Program-made: the position numbers and the translations under genes | DNA from: Acinetobacter phage Mokit | Strand: one strand, 5' to 3' | Sequence record: MW388002.1 | DNA length: 64,000 nucleotides | Notes under the pieces: generated by a model | Seen by the model: only the letters and a program-made list of their open reading frames with translations | Told to the model about the DNA's origin: nothing | Databases searched by the model: none | Shown here: piece after piece, positions 14,191-50,274 of the stretch | How positions within the stretch are numbered: the first letter of the stretch is position 1 | Layout: every line of letters starts with the position of its first letter

Positions 14191-14277
14191 TCTATGAGAT
14201 TAAAAAATGATCATATAAATAGATTAATTTTGCATAATCCACTTGCTTTATGAAATTTGTATGTTATAATGGTTCTA

Positions 14278-14407
14278 CCGGTTCACCGCTCTAAATTTAT
14301 CTATTTGGTCGGAGAAGTATAGCTGCTGCGCAGCCGGCGCTTCGCGCCGAAATTAGATGTGTTTGATGTATCTTGAGAGAAAAATAAAGGAGCCATTTGG
14401 CTCCTTT
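14278..14407 (+). ncRNA. candidate small structured RNA (GC-rich repeat element copy 1) transcribed on the plus strand from a MotA-box-like promoter to a bidirectional terminator hairpin
   Basis: TGCTTTA (14244-14250) + 14 nt + TATAAT (14265-14270); GC-rich hairpins; hairpin aaaggagcc-attt-ggctccttt (14386-14407) followed by TTTTATTAT; no ORF. Confidence 0.3.
14386..14407. terminator. bidirectional terminator hairpin (after macro-domain gene on minus; after GC-element RNA on plus)
   Basis: AAAGGAGCC-AUUU-GGCUCCUUU with U-rich tracts on both strands. Confidence 0.5.
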
Positions 14408-14409
14408 TA

Positions 14410-14853
14410 TTATATGTATAATACATAAATTTTGACATCTGGCGTCACGTCATTGATGATCTCGGCAATTTCTTGCCAGTTTCCACCTGCAATACCTGCT
14501 CCGATTTTAGGAATTCCTAAAGATTTGCCGGCATATTTGCTGTTAATCACTGTAAATGCATCACGTATATTTTCATACAATTGATGTGTTGGACATTTAC
14601 CAGGGCGATATTGTGTATACGCATTAATAATGTCACCATTTACAGTTGTGGCGATGCTCACATCGCCGAGCTTGCTCCAGTCGCCATATTCAGTTTTCTT
14701 ATCTGCTTCGACAGCTACAGGAAATCTTTTTGCAATAGCACCAGCAATACCTGCACCCATCGTATGAAAACAGTTGCAGCCATGTACTATTGCATCAAAG
14801 TCATTATGCTCAAATGCATCGAGCAAATCGTAATTTACATATTGTTTAATCAT
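14410..14853 (-). CDS. macro domain (ADP-ribose-binding/processing) protein
   Basis: IVHGCNCFHTMGAGIAGAI and IPKIGAGIAGGNW match macro-domain Gly-rich motifs; ATG with GAGGTAATC RBS. Confidence 0.7.
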   Translation of the reverse strand: MIKQYVNYDLLDAFEHNDFDAIVHGCNCFHTMGAGIAGAIAKRFPVAVEADKKTEYGDWSKLGDVSIATTVNGDIINAYTQYRPGKCPTHQLYENIRDAFTVINSKYAGKSLGIPKIGAGIAGGNWQEIAEIINDVTPDVKIYVLYI

Positions 14854-16452: not shown

Positions 16453-16778
16453 TGATATGTCTCCAATAATGCTTGTTCATTTTTACATTTTGAGCATGTA
16501 GTACATTTAGATGCAATGCCATGCTTGGGTAATTGAATACCTTTAGCTTCCATTTCTTCAACAGCTGCAGCAATTGCAAGATATTGGACTTTTACCGGAA
16601 ACCTATGTGAAGATAACACCTCAGAACAAGTAAATTTACCTCTAAATAGAATTTGATCTAGAACACCTGATGATTGATCAATGTCTCTGATGAAGCCTTT
16701 TACAAGGAGAGTTGCGTGCAGCTCATCATAATTGGTACCAAGGAATTTACGAAGTGCTATAAAATTTGGTAATGGCAT
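16449..16778 (-). CDS. hypothetical Cys-rich protein (109 aa)
   Basis: ORF downstream of PeSL promoter ~16804-16840. Confidence 0.45.
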   Translation of the reverse strand: MPLPNFIALRKFLGTNYDELHATLLVKGFIRDIDQSSGVLDQILFRGKFTCSEVLSSHRFPVKVQYLAIAAAVEEMEAKGIQLPKHGIASKCTTCSKCKNEQALLETYQ

Positions 16779-45814: not shown

Positions 45815-47044
45815 TTAAAAATCGAACATATCCATCAACGATGAACGTTTTTCTGCTTGCATACCTGCAGATTCACACATACCTTCAAGAGGCTTTTTGT
45901 ATGTTTTACCAAATAAGTCCATGACATCCATATGCTTTAGAACATCTGCACGAATTTCTTTAGGCAATTCATTACCTGATGGCCATGCAATACACTTGTC
46001 ACCAAATGGATTTCCAGGTTTAAGAGGCAAGATCATTACCTTTTCGCCTTCTGAAATATCTGGCAAGTTATCGTATTTCTTAATTGCACGTCGGTATGTA
46101 AGAACACCACGAACATGACTTGGACATTTAAGACCCGGGAATCCATTCACATCATATTTTGCAATATTATTTGCAGAACGAACACCAGCAATTACTTTAT
46201 AATCAAGATTTCTGAATTCGTTTTCAAATTTCTTGAAATACTCTTGTAATGGTTTTTCACCTTCTTGGAGCATAATACGAATACTTTCTAACAATGCATC
46301 TTTGACCGCTTTAGGCGTTGATGATTGTTGAGTTTCCATGCCCATGATTTTTAAGTATGGCTCTTTGAAACGTGTACCTTCCATGTCATAGACATTAAGT
46401 GCATATCGTTTCTTGGCACGCCAGAATCCGCCGATGCCGTTAGAACCAAGTGGTGGGCATGCAATAGCTTCACGATCCATAAACATCAATTGTTCATAGT
46501 TGTTGAGATATTCACACATCTCTTTAAACCCATCATTAATAACTGGTTCGATTTTCTTCGAAGCTACTGCATCTAAAAAGTCAACAAGCTTTTCAGTCGA
46601 TGAGAATTTATCGATGCCAACTTTTTCGATTAATGGGCTTAGTTCGATATACAATGAGTCAGTATCGCCATAAATAACATAAGGGTGATCTGTAGTTCCA
46701 CATAGTTCGTTTAAGTATGCATTAATCTTTCGTTCAGTCCATTGAAGAACCATTTGCCCAAAGATTGTAATAGCTTCAGCATTTCTAAGATCGTAAAATC
46801 TAAAATAGATGTTACCGAGTGCGCCATATAAACTGTTAATTAATAGCTTTCGGTTAATTTGATTTGTATCACATAAAGTGATGTAATTTTCACATTGTGT
46901 TTCAAGTGCATTGAGTTCTTCTTGTGAAAGAGATTTGAGATATTCAATTTCACTTTCGGTGAAGTCTCGACTAAAATCAAGATTCATATAATCTCCAAAG
47001 ATAGGGTTTATTGACTCAAATGGGATATGATAACATTTTATCAT
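45815..47044 (-). CDS. 43: DNA polymerase gp43, C-terminal part (43B: palm motifs B/C, thumb)
   Basis: KLLINSLYGALGN (motif B), YGDTDSLYI (motif C), C-terminus ...MDMFDF align with T4 gp43 residues ~480-898; an alternative ATG at 46987 has a stronger RBS (TGGAGATTAT). Confidence 0.85.
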   Translation of the reverse strand: MIKCYHIPFESINPIFGDYMNLDFSRDFTESEIEYLKSLSQEELNALETQCENYITLCDTNQINRKLLINSLYGALGNIYFRFYDLRNAEAITIFGQMVLQWTERKINAYLNELCGTTDHPYVIYGDTDSLYIELSPLIEKVGIDKFSSTEKLVDFLDAVASKKIEPVINDGFKEMCEYLNNYEQLMFMDREAIACPPLGSNGIGGFWRAKKRYALNVYDMEGTRFKEPYLKIMGMETQQSSTPKAVKDALLESIRIMLQEGEKPLQEYFKKFENEFRNLDYKVIAGVRSANNIAKYDVNGFPGLKCPSHVRGVLTYRRAIKKYDNLPDISEGEKVMILPLKPGNPFGDKCIAWPSGNELPKEIRADVLKHMDVMDLFGKTYKKPLEGMCESAGMQAEKRSSLMDMFDF

Positions 47045-47086
47045 ATCCCTGATATAAGCTTAGCGGTAACTAAGTTGTAACACTAA

Positions 47087-47284
47087 TTAGAACATTGCGT
47101 TGACAAGCTCAGAACCTGCAGCTAAAGGATTCTTGAACATCAATGCACCAGTAACGAACCCAACAATGAACAACAATGGGATGCATATACCTACACCTAC
47201 AACAACCCGATACCATAATGCGGCAGTTTCAGAAAAATTTTCTGCATTCTCATTAGCAATACGAATTTGACTAAAAATATTCAT
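47087..47284 (-). CDS. small membrane protein in the 43A/43B intervening segment
   Basis: 65 aa hydrophobic ORF. Confidence 0.35.
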   Translation of the reverse strand: MNIFSQIRIANENAENFSETAALWYRVVVGVGICIPLLFIVGFVTGALMFKNPLAAGSELVNAMF

Positions 47285-47598
47285 AGGCCTATCTCCCTAA
47301 AACATTGAAATAATAAACGATTTATTTCCAATTCTTTGCGAACAGATTCATTCATTAACTGTATGACTGTATTAATATCTGATTGGCTGGAGCAGCGTGC
47401 ATTGAGCACAGTTTCTGCATTTTTACGACACATGTCAAATGTATTAAAATATCCTGAATAGCGAGGCAATGTGATGGCTTCAAGGACATTAGGCATCCAT
47501 GAAAGGTGGAACTTTTCATCAATTTCGCCTATAGTAAATAGTGTTGTTTGACAACCTTGAATTTCATCAAACTCTTCAATGGATTTATATACTCTCAT
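47281..47598 (-). CDS. hypothetical protein in the intervening segment
   Basis: 105 aa ORF. Confidence 0.4.
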   Translation of the reverse strand: MRVYKSIEEFDEIQGCQTTLFTIGEIDEKFHLSWMPNVLEAITLPRYSGYFNTFDMCRKNAETVLNARCSSQSDINTVIQLMNESVRKELEINRLLFQCFREIGL

Positions 47599-47909
47599 TT
47601 ATTTAACACCAGTCTAAATTCAGGAAATCTAGCTTCACACTCACGAGAAGCCATTTCAAAAATATTCATAATATCATATATAGTTGAAGGAGTATTTGGC
47701 AAGCCAATAATACTATTCAATCCATTAGTAACAAAATCATTTATAAATGAAATTATATCTTCACCATCTTTAAATTTCAATGCTTTATGAATAAATTCAG
47801 CGGATAGTTCAGCATTACAAGTACCATTATAATGAATTGCACTTAATGGCCACACATTAATAAATGTTTCTCCTTCAGGAGTGATTATTACATCTCTTTC
47901 AATATTCAT
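47595..47909 (-). CDS. hypothetical protein whose 5' leader is GC-element copy 2
   Basis: 104 aa ORF; ATG 47909 lies ~20 nt downstream of the conserved element. Confidence 0.45.
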   Translation of the reverse strand: MNIERDVIITPEGETFINVWPLSAIHYNGTCNAELSAEFIHKALKFKDGEDIISFINDFVTNGLNSIIGLPNTPSTIYDIMNIFEMASRECEARFPEFRLVLNK

Positions 47910-48041
47910 ATCATACTCGACAATATTCAGATTTCGGCGCGAAGCGCCGGCTGCGCAGCAGCTATTCTAGTCCAACGGAACGGCTAAATTTAGAGCGGTG
48001 AACCGGTAGAACCATTATAACACAAAAAATTCGTAAAGCAT
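47910..48041 (-). promoter_or_regulatory. MotA-box-like promoter plus structured GC-rich 5' leader (repeat element copy 2)
   Basis: minus strand: aTGCTTTAcgaattttttgtgtTATAATggttctacc then blocks A/B of the element (47931-48013), 20-nt divergent core 47965-47984. Confidence 0.4.
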
Positions 48042-48078
48042 GTGTGTGCTTTACGAATGTAGATTAATTAATAGACAC

Positions 48079-48303
48079 TTAATTTTTATCGTATAGTTCC
48101 TTTATACACATTGATTTATATTCTAAAACTTCGGTGGCAGTCATAAACGCCATATCCTTTTCACTCTGCGTGTTCCGAGATTTAATTTGAACCAATGTAT
48201 TATGATCTATATTTACTCTAGGTACACAATCTCTGCGAACACCTGGTGTTATGATTTCACAAGGAAATTTTTCTACTATTTCTTTAATCATTTCATATGT
48301 CAT
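48079..48303 (-). CDS. small hypothetical protein in the intervening segment
   Basis: 74 aa ORF. Confidence 0.4.
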   Translation of the reverse strand: MTYEMIKEIVEKFPCEIITPGVRRDCVPRVNIDHNTLVQIKSRNTQSEKDMAFMTATEVLEYKSMCIKELYDKN

Positions 48304-48382
48304 AATGAATTCCTCTGATTTATAAGAATGATTATATCATAATCAAAAAGCAAAGTAAACAAATTTTAGAGAAAAAGAAAGG

Positions 48383-48402
48383 GACCGAAGTCCCTTATGA
48401 AA
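48383..48402 (-). promoter_or_regulatory. UUCG-loop hairpin
   Basis: minus strand GGGAC-UUCG-GUCCC. Confidence 0.4.
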
Positions 48403-48414
48403 GATATATAAGTT

Positions 48415-48705
48415 TTAAACGATACTATACATTGTTACTGCGATCGGAAGAATTTCATTTGTCAGAGCTTTAAGATTTTCTTCAGTGATTTTAGTATCTT
48501 GGAAACGATGAACAATACGTTCAATTTCAACTACCTTTTGTTTATTTGTTTCACGATCACGTGGATCAATTACTAATTTAATATTGCTGCCTTTAAATTC
48601 TAGAGCAAGAATGCCTAATGTAATTTTTGCATCCATTGAACGAGTAGAACGAGTGTCAATTACTGGAGCTGCTGTGTTAAATGCTAATTTAGATTGAGTG
48701 ATCAT
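48415..48705 (-). CDS. hypothetical protein (96 aa from internal ATG) in the intervening segment
   Basis: ATG 48705 just downstream of PeSL promoter ~48720-48775; track start lies inside the promoter. Confidence 0.4.
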   Translation of the reverse strand: MITQSKLAFNTAAPVIDTRSTRSMDAKITLGILALEFKGSNIKLVIDPRDRETNKQKVVEIERIVHRFQDTKITEENLKALTNEILPIAVTMYSIV

Positions 48706-48719
48706 AATATACTTCTCTG

Positions 48720-48775
48720 TAGTTGATAGGACTATTATAACAATAGTCCTATCAAAAGTAAACATTTATTTGATT
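48720..48775 (-). promoter_or_regulatory. PeSL-type early promoter (stem gataggac/gtcctatc) upstream of the 43A/43B-intervening ORFs
   Basis: gttgataggactattataacaatagtcctatcaaaagtaaacattt. Confidence 0.5.
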
Positions 48776-50274
48776 AATTTTTTAATCAATTCTGCATTAC
48801 GTTTTGCAGCCATCATTTTGTTCTTCCATTCTTTACGTTGAAAGAACACTTTAGTAATTTCTTGTGGAATAATGCCTTGTTTAGTTTTCAAATACATCAT
48901 ACCACTAGGTGAACATGAGAATTCTTCTGATGGACTAGGCGCAATTTTGTTAATAAAATCAGATAACTTTGGAGGCGCAAATTGTCCGGCAATAGTTTCT
49001 GGGCTGATATTAACTTGACGAATAATAGATGGATATAACGATGTTACATCAAATGATACAACATATTTGTATGCGCCAGGTTTAGGTTCTTTAACATATG
49101 CTCCTGAATACGATTGGCGAATATTTGGTTTACTTTCGGGTAAAACTAAATGATCAGCTTTTAAAGAGTTGAACAAAATTGCATCCCAGGTTTTTACTGG
49201 GCTCATTACTGTTGCAATGTTCATTCGTGCATAATAACCCATTGAAATTGATAGATTAATAAATCCACGTTTTGCATCAATTGCTTGAACACAGTACACG
49301 TCAATAATGTTATATGAAATGTAACGTTGATGATTTGATCCACGTAGTTTATCGATTGGGCCGTCATATTCTAATTTGTTGATCCCGGCTTCATACTCTG
49401 CAATATAATCAAGCTTATATGATGGCTGAGACGTGAAAGCAAACTTTTTATACAAATCTAGATAATCGAGAATCATTACTCCAGAAATGTTGAAAATTTC
49501 TTTATCACCGTACATGTTTGTAATAACTTTTGATGTAATCTTACCAAATGGACTTAAACGGGACATGCCTGAAACGCCTAAAACGTTTTTGATTCGATTG
49601 ACAATGTATGGAATATCAAAACCTTCTACGTTCCATCCAGTGAAAATAACAGGTGTGTGTTTTTCCCAGAACTCAACGTACGCCAACAGCATTTCACGTT
49701 CAGATTCATACGATTGATACACCACTTTATCCAAAATATGTTGTGGCACTTCATCACCACCTTCTTCAATTGATTTTGCTGCAAGTTCTTTAGACCATTT
49801 AGTAACACGTCCTCGAGCAGAATTTAGCAAATCAAATACAAAATACTTGTCTTCAATTGAGTCATAATGTGTAATAGCATCAATTTCATACTTTGCAAAA
49901 GTTGGATCTGGGAATTCACCTGCAGTTACCTCAATGTCACAGTTAGCAACACGAATAGCATCGCGACTGTAAGTAATTTCCTTTTTGCCATAAATATCTG
50001 AAATGTATGCAAGTCTAAAGTCATCCATGCCAAGGATTTCTACAATACCACGAGTTTTTTGCATCCAGTCTTTTGCTTCACGAATAGATCCAAATCGTTT
50101 TGGCATACATGGCTTACCATAGATGTCTTTATATTTTGTGTTTGTGCCATCTTTAGCATGAATAAAAAGAGTAGGTTCATATGGAATTTCACGAATTTTT
50201 TCAATGCCATCTTCAACATAACGTTCTTGAATGCGATCACCTGACTGTTCAACAACTAAATAAAAATTAGACAT
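48766..50274 (-). CDS. 43: DNA polymerase gp43, N-terminal part (43A: 3'-5' exonuclease domain and motif A)
   Basis: ...RVANCDIEVTAGEFPDP, AITHYDSIEDKYFVFDLLNS, DVTSLYPSIIRQVNISPETI align with T4 gp43 residues 1-~480; ends ...ELIKKLIK where T4 continues. Confidence 0.85.
   Translation of the reverse strand: MSNFYLVVEQSGDRIQERYVEDGIEKIREIPYEPTLFIHAKDGTNTKYKDIYGKPCMPKRFGSIREAKDWMQKTRGIVEILGMDDFRLAYISDIYGKKEITYSRDAIRVANCDIEVTAGEFPDPTFAKYEIDAITHYDSIEDKYFVFDLLNSARGRVTKWSKELAAKSIEEGGDEVPQHILDKVVYQSYESEREMLLAYVEFWEKHTPVIFTGWNVEGFDIPYIVNRIKNVLGVSGMSRLSPFGKITSKVITNMYGDKEIFNISGVMILDYLDLYKKFAFTSQPSYKLDYIAEYEAGINKLEYDGPIDKLRGSNHQRYISYNIIDVYCVQAIDAKRGFINLSISMGYYARMNIATVMSPVKTWDAILFNSLKADHLVLPESKPNIRQSYSGAYVKEPKPGAYKYVVSFDVTSLYPSIIRQVNISPETIAGQFAPPKLSDFINKIAPSPSEEFSCSPSGMMYLKTKQGIIPQEITKVFFQRKEWKNKMMAAKRNAELIKKLIK

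Follow-up and report, generated by a model that had tools for sequence, protein, structure and literature searches.

Five evenly spaced promoter-headed units in T4-like Acinetobacter phages: candidate replication origins of the R-loop type

In a 64,000-nt stretch of the genome of Acinetobacter phage Mokit (MW388002.1; this whole stretch is referred to below as the window), a promoter-headed and partly G+C-rich element occupies positions 14243-14407. We propose that this T4-like phage has five paralogous replication-origin units like the R-loop origins of T4 and that the element is one of them, a reading that comparison of related genomes leads us to hold with a probability of about 0.45. The wider proposal, that the origins of the Twarogvirinae are defined by their sequence, as five concertedly evolving promoter-plus-primer-RNA modules set at near-equal intervals and positionally equivalent to oriA, C, E, F and G of T4, is offered a little more hesitantly. 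It is the even spacing of the units, together with positions like those of the T4 origins, that leads us to a role in replication and not to that of a trans-acting small RNA. No published description of these units was found in the literature on these phages or on T4-like promoter cassettes, where a search for the sequence itself hit nothing but unrelated SARS-CoV-2 primers, and in GenBank they are either unannotated or overlaid by doubtful small open reading frames (ORFs).

Over the 2.5 kb tested, the window is 99.8% identical to the T4-like phage Melin (Straboviridae, Twarogvirinae, Hadassahvirus), and the genome of AbTZA1, which was assembled from four record pieces for the copy search, is 96.7% identical to it. 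With a 95-nt query, 50 Acinetobacter phage records each gave about five matching places. In AbTZA1 there are exactly five copies, at 9(+), 36220(-), 65913(+), 97826(+) and 136093(-), separated by 36.2, 29.7, 31.9, 38.3 and 32.1 kb, where one fifth of the genome is 33.6 kb. The minimum gap has a p of about 2e-4 against random uniform points, and of <=1e-5 when the points are chosen among 39 promoter-like positions. In Kimel (Lazarusvirus) the number of copies is likewise five, and the gene contexts are the same. The preliminary description of this DNA had reported a second copy 33.6 kb from the first; the exact recurrence of both arms is borne out (arm A and arm B each occur twice in the window, against 0 matches in 100 shuffles), but there are five copies per genome, not two, and the second copy lies on the minus strand. 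Six matching places were found in each of MT949699 (Maestro) and OZ075066 (AB-Navy-v2), and the extra one may represent a partial duplication of the kind seen in phage AC4, where the promoter and first ~30 nt of the element are tandemly duplicated in copy 1 (L144 170-300) and the units thus appear recombination-prone. Searches with an exact 28-mer and with a 21-23-mer pattern returned only AbTZA1 and Kimel in IMG/VR and nothing in the metagenome or genome collections, and a 14-mer scan gave chance matches only.

T4 has five active origins with no common sequence motif. At oriF and oriG, a MotA-dependent middle promoter is followed by a downstream unwinding element, the R-loop transcript primes DNA synthesis, and approximately 100 bp suffices for an origin of this type (PMC3016281). 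In the T4 record, oriA is at 16763; oriE, at 79355, runs antisense to late gene 5; oriF, at 115321, falls between gene 25 and uvsY, whose transcript is the primer; and oriG, at 152947, lies within gene 34 and points toward rnh. Copy 4 stands exactly at the oriF position, in the gap after gene 25 and before the uvsY.-2 homologue. Copy 3, in the rnh/34 gap, adjoins oriG, which lies ~2 kb away inside gene 34, and both point toward rnh. Copy 5 is ~3 kb from the map position of oriE, and copy 1 is about 5 kb from that of oriA.

The same arrangement can be followed into a third genus. BLAST did not detect the element in ZZ1 (Zedzedvirus), but four of the syntenic gaps (srd/tk.4, gp3/gp2, gp25/uvsY.-2 and rnh/gp34), when read directly, have a TATAAT promoter with G+C-rich sequence after it, so that four of the five units occupy the same gene gaps in all three genera. 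The srd/tk.4 unit of ZZ1 is again ORF-free and closed by a terminator, and a fifth unit lies near nrdC. The five ZZ1 units form a mosaic of shared modules and have no further relatives in that genome. Two of them align in register with the Hadassahvirus units; the promoter and TTCGGTCGG(G)AGA.GATA.AGG are the same in both, whereas CCCCTA repeats stand where Hadassahvirus has GGTTCACCGCTC. The ZZ1 units lie at 17.5, 60.4, 79.3, 117.9 and 149.7 kb (gaps of 43.0, 18.9, 38.6, 31.7 and 34.5 kb), and T4 oriA, C, E, F and G at 16.8, ~59, 79.4, 115.3 and 152.9 kb (gaps of 42.2, 20.4, 36.0, 37.6 and 32.7 kb). Summed over matched sites, the distance between the two sets is 9.7 kb, a closeness reached by none of 20,000 random sets; under the rotation null the value is 0.017.

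Two further features of the ZZ1 units deserve mention. A C-run motif is strongly enriched in the units, eight of its 45 genome-wide occurrences being within 350 nt of them. Two units have it on the sense strand and two others on the antisense strand, and this independence of orientation suggests that it would be recognized as DNA and not as RNA. Two units (L146 29341-29375 and L147 49600-49640) carry telomere-like C-rich repeats, TATCCCCTATCCCCTACCCCCTA, with a G-run-rich template strand, and two other units have G-runs on the sense strand.

Cumulative GC skew was also considered as an origin marker and rejected, as its extrema track gene orientation and do not discriminate. The ZZ1 genome paper placed a GC-skew 'origin' at nt 81009 (PMC4177764), which is at L146 ~31009 and 1.7 kb from ZZ1 unit c5, and the cumulative skew minimum of AbTZA1 (~132-138 kb) falls at copy 5; both points are weak evidence because they coincide with a switch in gene orientation.

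The organization of the units is best seen in copy 1 (Table 1). The order noted in the preliminary description, in which a TGCTTTA box, a 14-nt spacer and TATAAT (14265-14270) precede the element, is correct and the resemblance to a MotA box is real; the phage itself encodes MotA and AsiA. TTGCTT at 14243-14248 is a possible weak -35, and a simple sigma-70 scan did not call this promoter because it is without a consensus -35. The box and TATAAT occur together in copies 1, 2 and 4, whereas copy 3 has GTTTACA-17-TATAAT and copy 5 only TGCTATC. The -10 element is part of the repeat itself: in the 12 copies aligned, the invariant sequence comprises TGnTATAAT, then GGTTCTAC(C)GGTTCACCGCTCTAAwTwTAT, then a segment with GGTCGGAGAAGATAG. 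Approximately 30 early promoters of the phage share GTTTAC(A/T)-N17-TATAAT followed by aGTyCTATCAAAT (AbTZA1 L004-L007, e.g. 22835, 30863 and 32552), and GGTTCTA directly after TATAAT is their general start-region consensus. Thus, the element-specific part begins around +9.

Downstream of the promoter, the modules differ in how strictly they are kept. Arm A, in which the direct repeat GGTTC(T)AC is present twice, is near-invariant across all five paralogues of two genera, and its first 7 nt probably lie 5' of the transcription start, which for copy 1 is predicted near 14277, with the transcript ending near 14410. Between genera, arm A is 93% identical, arm B 91% and the core 52%, against about 45% (44-46%) for the flanks. 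Arm B is whole in copies 1 and 2; copy 3 keeps half of it, and copies 4 and 5 have none. The core motif TTCGGTCGG(G)AGA..GATA.AG is also retained in ZZ1 c5. Cores are homogenized within genomes, such that the copy 1 core equals that of copy 2 in Kimel and that of copy 3 in Hadassahvirus. As described previously, the element is G+C-rich in an A+T-rich setting (53% for 14271-14353 against 35.7% for the window), with arm B reaching 68%. At +1 to +25 the units have a G+C fraction of 0.48-0.52, compared with a mean of 0.30 at 36 other promoters; their A+T-rich stretches fall at about +22 to +45 and in the TTAGATG... tail. Most copies carry the A+T-rich motif TTAGATGTAT.TGAT.TATC, ZZ1 has ATCTAATnTATCTAATATAT at the position of the tail, and the tail of copy 1 is a candidate unwinding region.

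Table 1. Features of copies 1 and 2 in the window, with the settings of all five copies
Feature	Position	Strand	Basis or context
Copy 1			srd/macro-domain gene gap, antisense to all neighbours; no ORF; terminator after ~135 nt
Copy 1 MotA-box-like TGCTTTA	14244-14250	+	same box and 14-nt spacing in copy 2 and AbTZA1 copy 4
Copy 1 extended -10, TGTTATAAT	14262-14270	+	TG and TATAAT kept in 12/12 aligned copies
Copy 1 arm A, conserved 5' module, GGTTCTACCGGTTCACCGCTCTAAATTTA	14271-14299	+	exact second copy in window
Copy 1 core, TCTATTTGGTCGGAGAAGTA, with GGTCGGAGA motif	14300-14319	+	same sequence in 4/5 AbTZA1 copies
Copy 1 arm B, optional GC-rich module with two hairpins (14322-14334 and 14335-14349)	14320-14353	+	fold
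Copy 1 A+T-rich tail, TAGATGTGTTTGATGTATCTTGAG...	14354-14385	+	related to TTAGATGTAT.TGAT.TATC of other copies
Terminator closing copy 1, 9-bp hairpin and T-rich tail	14386-14407	both	terminator scan; 91% conserved between genera
Copy 2 (arm A 48013-47985, variant core 47984-47965, arm B 47964-47931)	47931-48013	-	exact arm matches; in ~1.7-kb insertion splitting gp43, just 3' of terminator hairpin
Copy 2 extended -10, TGTTATAAT	48014-48022	-	sequence and 12-copy alignment
Copy 2 upstream terminator hairpin	48029-48058	-	12-bp stem, then TTTTTT
First ORF 3' of copy 2, 104 amino acids, no family match	47595-47909	-	starts 21 nt beyond copy 2
Copy 3			divergent gp34/rnh gap, early-type promoter; reads toward rnh
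Copy 4			directly after baseplate gene 25; before DUF2685 protein, homologue of T4 uvsY.-2
Copy 5			between gp2 and gp3, antisense to late gene 2; ORF-free; reaches the GC hairpin that terminates gene 2

Copies 1 and 5 are particularly informative. In the counterpart regions of Melin and AbTZA1 all annotated genes lie on the strand opposite copy 1, as had been claimed for this plus-strand unit amid minus-strand genes. From promoter to terminator copy 1 spans ~135 nt of the plus strand without an ORF, which makes a short non-coding transcript plausible. The hairpin and U-tract said to follow the element do exist, as a 9-bp hairpin with a T-rich tail; this terminator is bidirectional, however, with the better T-tract on the minus strand, and it also ends the minus-strand macro-domain (Tk.4-like) gene at 14410-14853. 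A 45-amino-acid minus-strand ORF (14301-14438) overlapping arm B and the terminator is probably no gene, and a 'hypothetical protein' is annotated across the element in the Maestro, Bhz15 and PhT2-v2 records. With no ORF downstream, an antisense orientation to their neighbours and terminators closing them, copies 1 and 5 are unlikely to have a role in gene expression. The remaining three copies (2-4) have no terminator and run on into ORFs.

If the units are origins, they could work as follows. Host RNA polymerase would start at the promoter, with its extended -10 and usually a MotA-type box, and make a short transcript whose first ~25 nt are G+C-rich, with short direct repeats, and are followed by A+T-rich sequence. 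The nascent RNA would be kept on its template as an R-loop, the G+C-rich start stabilizing the hybrid and the A+T-rich part unwinding. It would then be trimmed, plausibly by the phage RNase H, and prime leading-strand synthesis, while the displaced strand would serve for helicase-primase loading. A phage protein may, in addition, bind the conserved modules. Initiation at five roughly equidistant points would permit quick early copying of the 168-kb genome. Copies 2-4 would double as promoters for the genes downstream, and copies 1 and 5 would have no gene to express.

Several observations weigh against an origin function. Exact synteny of gene neighbourhood with a T4 origin is limited to copy 4; copy 3 is adjacent to one, copies 5 and 1 are 3-7 kb from oriE and oriA, and overall the copies other than 3 and 4 agree only to within 3-10 kb. 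The fifth copy lies in gp43 in this phage and near nrdC in ZZ1. The agreement of Hadassahvirus with the T4 origins gives 0.001 against random sets and only 0.10 under the rotation null, and the T4 position used for oriC (~59 kb) was taken from a figure legend ('rI.-1 near oriC'). Furthermore, the box-to--10 distance is 14 nt in the units, compared with 13 nt in T4 oriF and oriG (TGCTTCA) and 12-13 nt in the other MotA-like promoters of the phage. T4 origins are A+T-rich immediately after the promoter, unlike the units, with their G+C-rich starts (48-52% over the first ~25 nt), conserved modules and optional GC hairpins. Classical R-loop initiators have a G-rich RNA, and the RNA of the units is not G-rich. 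Finally, copies 1 and 5, bounded by promoter and terminator, also look like ordinary small-RNA genes. Our estimate stays at the level given above because strict synteny extends to only one or two copies, and because of the 14-nt spacing and the conserved G+C-rich starts unlike those of T4.

This last resemblance raises the question of whether the five members act as RNA, as small RNAs in copies 1 and 5 and as 5' leaders in copies 2-4, with the conserved 5' segment binding a protein or pairing with a target (in mRNA regulation, in making RNA polymerase terminator-resistant or in mRNA stability). We regard this as unlikely, though it is the most probable of the alternatives. The two ORF-free units are about 105-135 nt long, each with its promoter and intrinsic terminator, and in every transcript the conserved part is at the 5' end. 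The two hairpins proposed earlier, GCUGC-UGC-GCAGC and CGGCGC-UUC-GCGCCG, are present in both the minimum free energy and the centroid folds, and among phages the arm-B stems are invariant while the loop changes (TTC, TGT or ACA). Copy 1 also folds better than shuffled sequence (z = -2.25), a value that is due to arm B and the terminator; copy 2 does not (z = -0.11).

Beyond arm B, whose constant stems and changing loop are the only structural signal, the tests for a structured RNA were negative. A hairpin can be drawn in every variant of the core, with a stability no greater than that of shuffled sequence (z from -1.7 to +0.8). RNAalifold, applied to nine distinct 5' modules, gave three invariant pairs without covariation, and a consensus RNA structure was rejected on these grounds. 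Rfam 15 returned no match at gathering thresholds anywhere in the window, with only terminator-like chance matches at E<=10. Scans for tRNA and tmRNA found none, and a tRNA-like element was set aside, as was a riboswitch or ribozyme, the CUGAUGA of one AbTZA1 copy not being conserved. What we took to be a likeness of the 5' part to preQ1-I aptamers led nowhere. A short peptide (ATG at 14268, 17 codons to a TAG in arm B, in both window copies) was also rejected, as its start codon falls within the -10 hexamer and three AbTZA1 copies have a 1-nt deletion that changes the reading frame with no loss of nucleotide conservation. In the absence of any signal of structure or covariation beyond arm B, conservation is mainly at the level of primary sequence.

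Other findings are also difficult to accommodate in a family acting as RNA. No antisense complementarity to the element was found elsewhere in the phage genome, part of arm A probably precedes the transcript, and the ZZ1 C-run motif faces either way with respect to the promoter. Neither even spacing nor conserved map positions would be expected of small-RNA genes or leaders. Multi-copy small-RNA families such as Qrr1-5 and LhrC1-5 do exist, and they are similar in having several paralogous short promoter-to-terminator units with a common conserved segment. However, three of the five copies here have no terminator, neither a conserved fold nor target complementarity was found, and even genome-wide spacing is not a property of such families.

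The possibility that the arms serve as constant scaffolds for a programmable 20-nt guide, used by a phage nuclease or recombinase, follows naturally from the window alone, in which the arms are identical and the cores differ, as stated in the preliminary description, at 9/20 positions. The picture of two constant arms around a variable core does not survive comparison with the other copies: four of the five AbTZA1 copies have one and the same core, the sole deviant being the copy in the polymerase gene, which still matches the others at 11/20 positions, and arm B is full in two copies only. In addition, the cores are homogenized within genomes, the phage genome gave no further match to the core, and none of the neighbouring ORFs matches a nuclease or recombinase family, most belonging to families of unknown function or matching nothing. 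We therefore rejected the guide-RNA reading, which is close to refuted.

Another explanation is that the units are regulatory DNA cassettes kept alike by recombination, with a transcribed stretch of no specific function. PeSL and PmSL cassettes consist of a stem-loop immediately 5' of an early or Mot-type promoter and are repeated and recombination-prone (Arbiol 2010; Comeau 2014, PMC4122927). The similarity is clearest in copy 2, where the upstream hairpin and its T-run stop 6 nt ahead of the extended -10 and the TGCTTTA box (48040-48034) sits in the 3' arm of the hairpin, as in a PmSL; Lazarusvirus copies likewise have GTAAAGCAC...GTGCTTTAC hairpins. The homogenization of paralogues, the AC4 duplication and the location of copy 2 in a plastic insertion fit the same explanation. 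Against this, copy 1 of Mokit is without an upstream hairpin, and PeSLs, unlike the units, are many per genome, clustered in variable or hyperplastic regions and devoid of a conserved transcribed module. Here there are exactly five evenly spaced copies, whose transcribed module is far better conserved than the flanks and is missing from roughly 36 other promoters of the phage, and two copies are located where a promoter is not needed. Cassettes of this kind appear an improbable explanation.

Slightly less probable again is that the units are DNA sites for some other regularly spaced process, such as recombination hot spots, entry sites for clamp loading in late transcription, topoisomerase sites or sites for a chromosome-organizing protein, with a promoter that is incidental or auxiliary. 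Even spacing, the short direct repeats (GGTTC(T)AC twice here, CCCCTA two or three times in ZZ1) and the orientation-independent ZZ1 motif would all suit this explanation. However, every copy has a strong promoter at a fixed position and in a fixed orientation relative to the module, the positions match the T4 origins specifically, and no candidate binding protein was found.

Copy 2 differs from the others in its surroundings. Its orientation is opposite to that of copy 1 and the same as that of the genes, and the ORF beginning just beyond it shows that copy 2 serves as an mRNA 5' leader as well. In the window (45815-50274), gp43 is split into two minus-strand ORFs, 48766-50274 and 45815-47044, by an insertion of ~1.7 kb, in which copy 2 and its promoter lie along with a terminator and five small ORFs. 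The Melin record labels gp43 'intron interrupted'; Rfam found no intron in the window. In ZZ1, gp43A and gp43B are annotated as separate genes, with no element between them.

Three independent records begin or end exactly at the edges of elements, namely MH713599 (KARL-1; 1-97, copy 1), MK278860 (AbTZA1; 1-91, copy 2) and OL763420 (PhaR5; 164386-164549, copy 4). Physical DNA ends were considered here and set aside, assembly breaks at repeat edges being the likeliest cause. Outside the window, the tRNA clusters of AbTZA1 (L006 38898-38972) and ZZ1 (L146 26199-26269) each include an annotated, amber-suppressor-like tRNA whose anticodon is CTA.

If the units are origins, they are of the T4 type but with shared, recognizable sequence modules, unlike T4's own, and the group would be the first among T4-like phages whose origins are all recognizable from sequence. 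The comparison of origins has been hard so far because those of T4 share no motif. The long-sought determinants of R-loop formation or of initiator binding would then be the shared modules, namely the G+C-rich start with its direct repeats, the GGTCGGAGA motif and the hairpins of arm B, and natural mutants would be at hand, in copies with and without the GC hairpins and in the diverged versions of ZZ1. The ORF-free copies 1 and 5 could be deleted cleanly, and the origin reading predicts five replication peaks. These phages also serve in therapy against Acinetobacter baumannii, so for their engineering it matters to know where replication starts and what the non-coding units are. Should the units prove to be RNAs with another role, they would still constitute an undescribed and strongly conserved non-coding family.

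In summary, the units can be set beside two systems of transcript-primed initiation. The first is T4. Copies 1, 2 and 4 resemble oriF and oriG in pairing a MotA-like box with a -10, ahead of a predicted short transcript. There are likewise five sites per ~168-kb genome with a similar pattern of spacing, and just as the oriF promoter serves uvsY, copies 2-4 double as gene promoters. T4 oriE has an early-type promoter, a primer RNA antisense to a late gene and short direct repeats, or iterons (PMC3016281). Copy 5, too, runs antisense to a late gene, and short direct repeats occur in the units, although oriE is within gene 5, runs in the direction opposite to copy 5 and has 12-nt iterons that are unrelated in sequence, the iteron-like repeats of the units amounting to just those listed above. 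oriE is also associated with repEA/repEB. The second system is plasmid ColE1, in which RNA II, a promoter-driven transcript, hybridizes to its template, is cut by RNase H and primes DNA synthesis, and in which hairpins matter for the hybrid. The template-hybridized, RNase H-trimmed and hairpin-bearing primer proposed here would parallel it; RNA II, unlike the units, is ~550 nt long, present as a single copy and controlled by the antisense RNA I.

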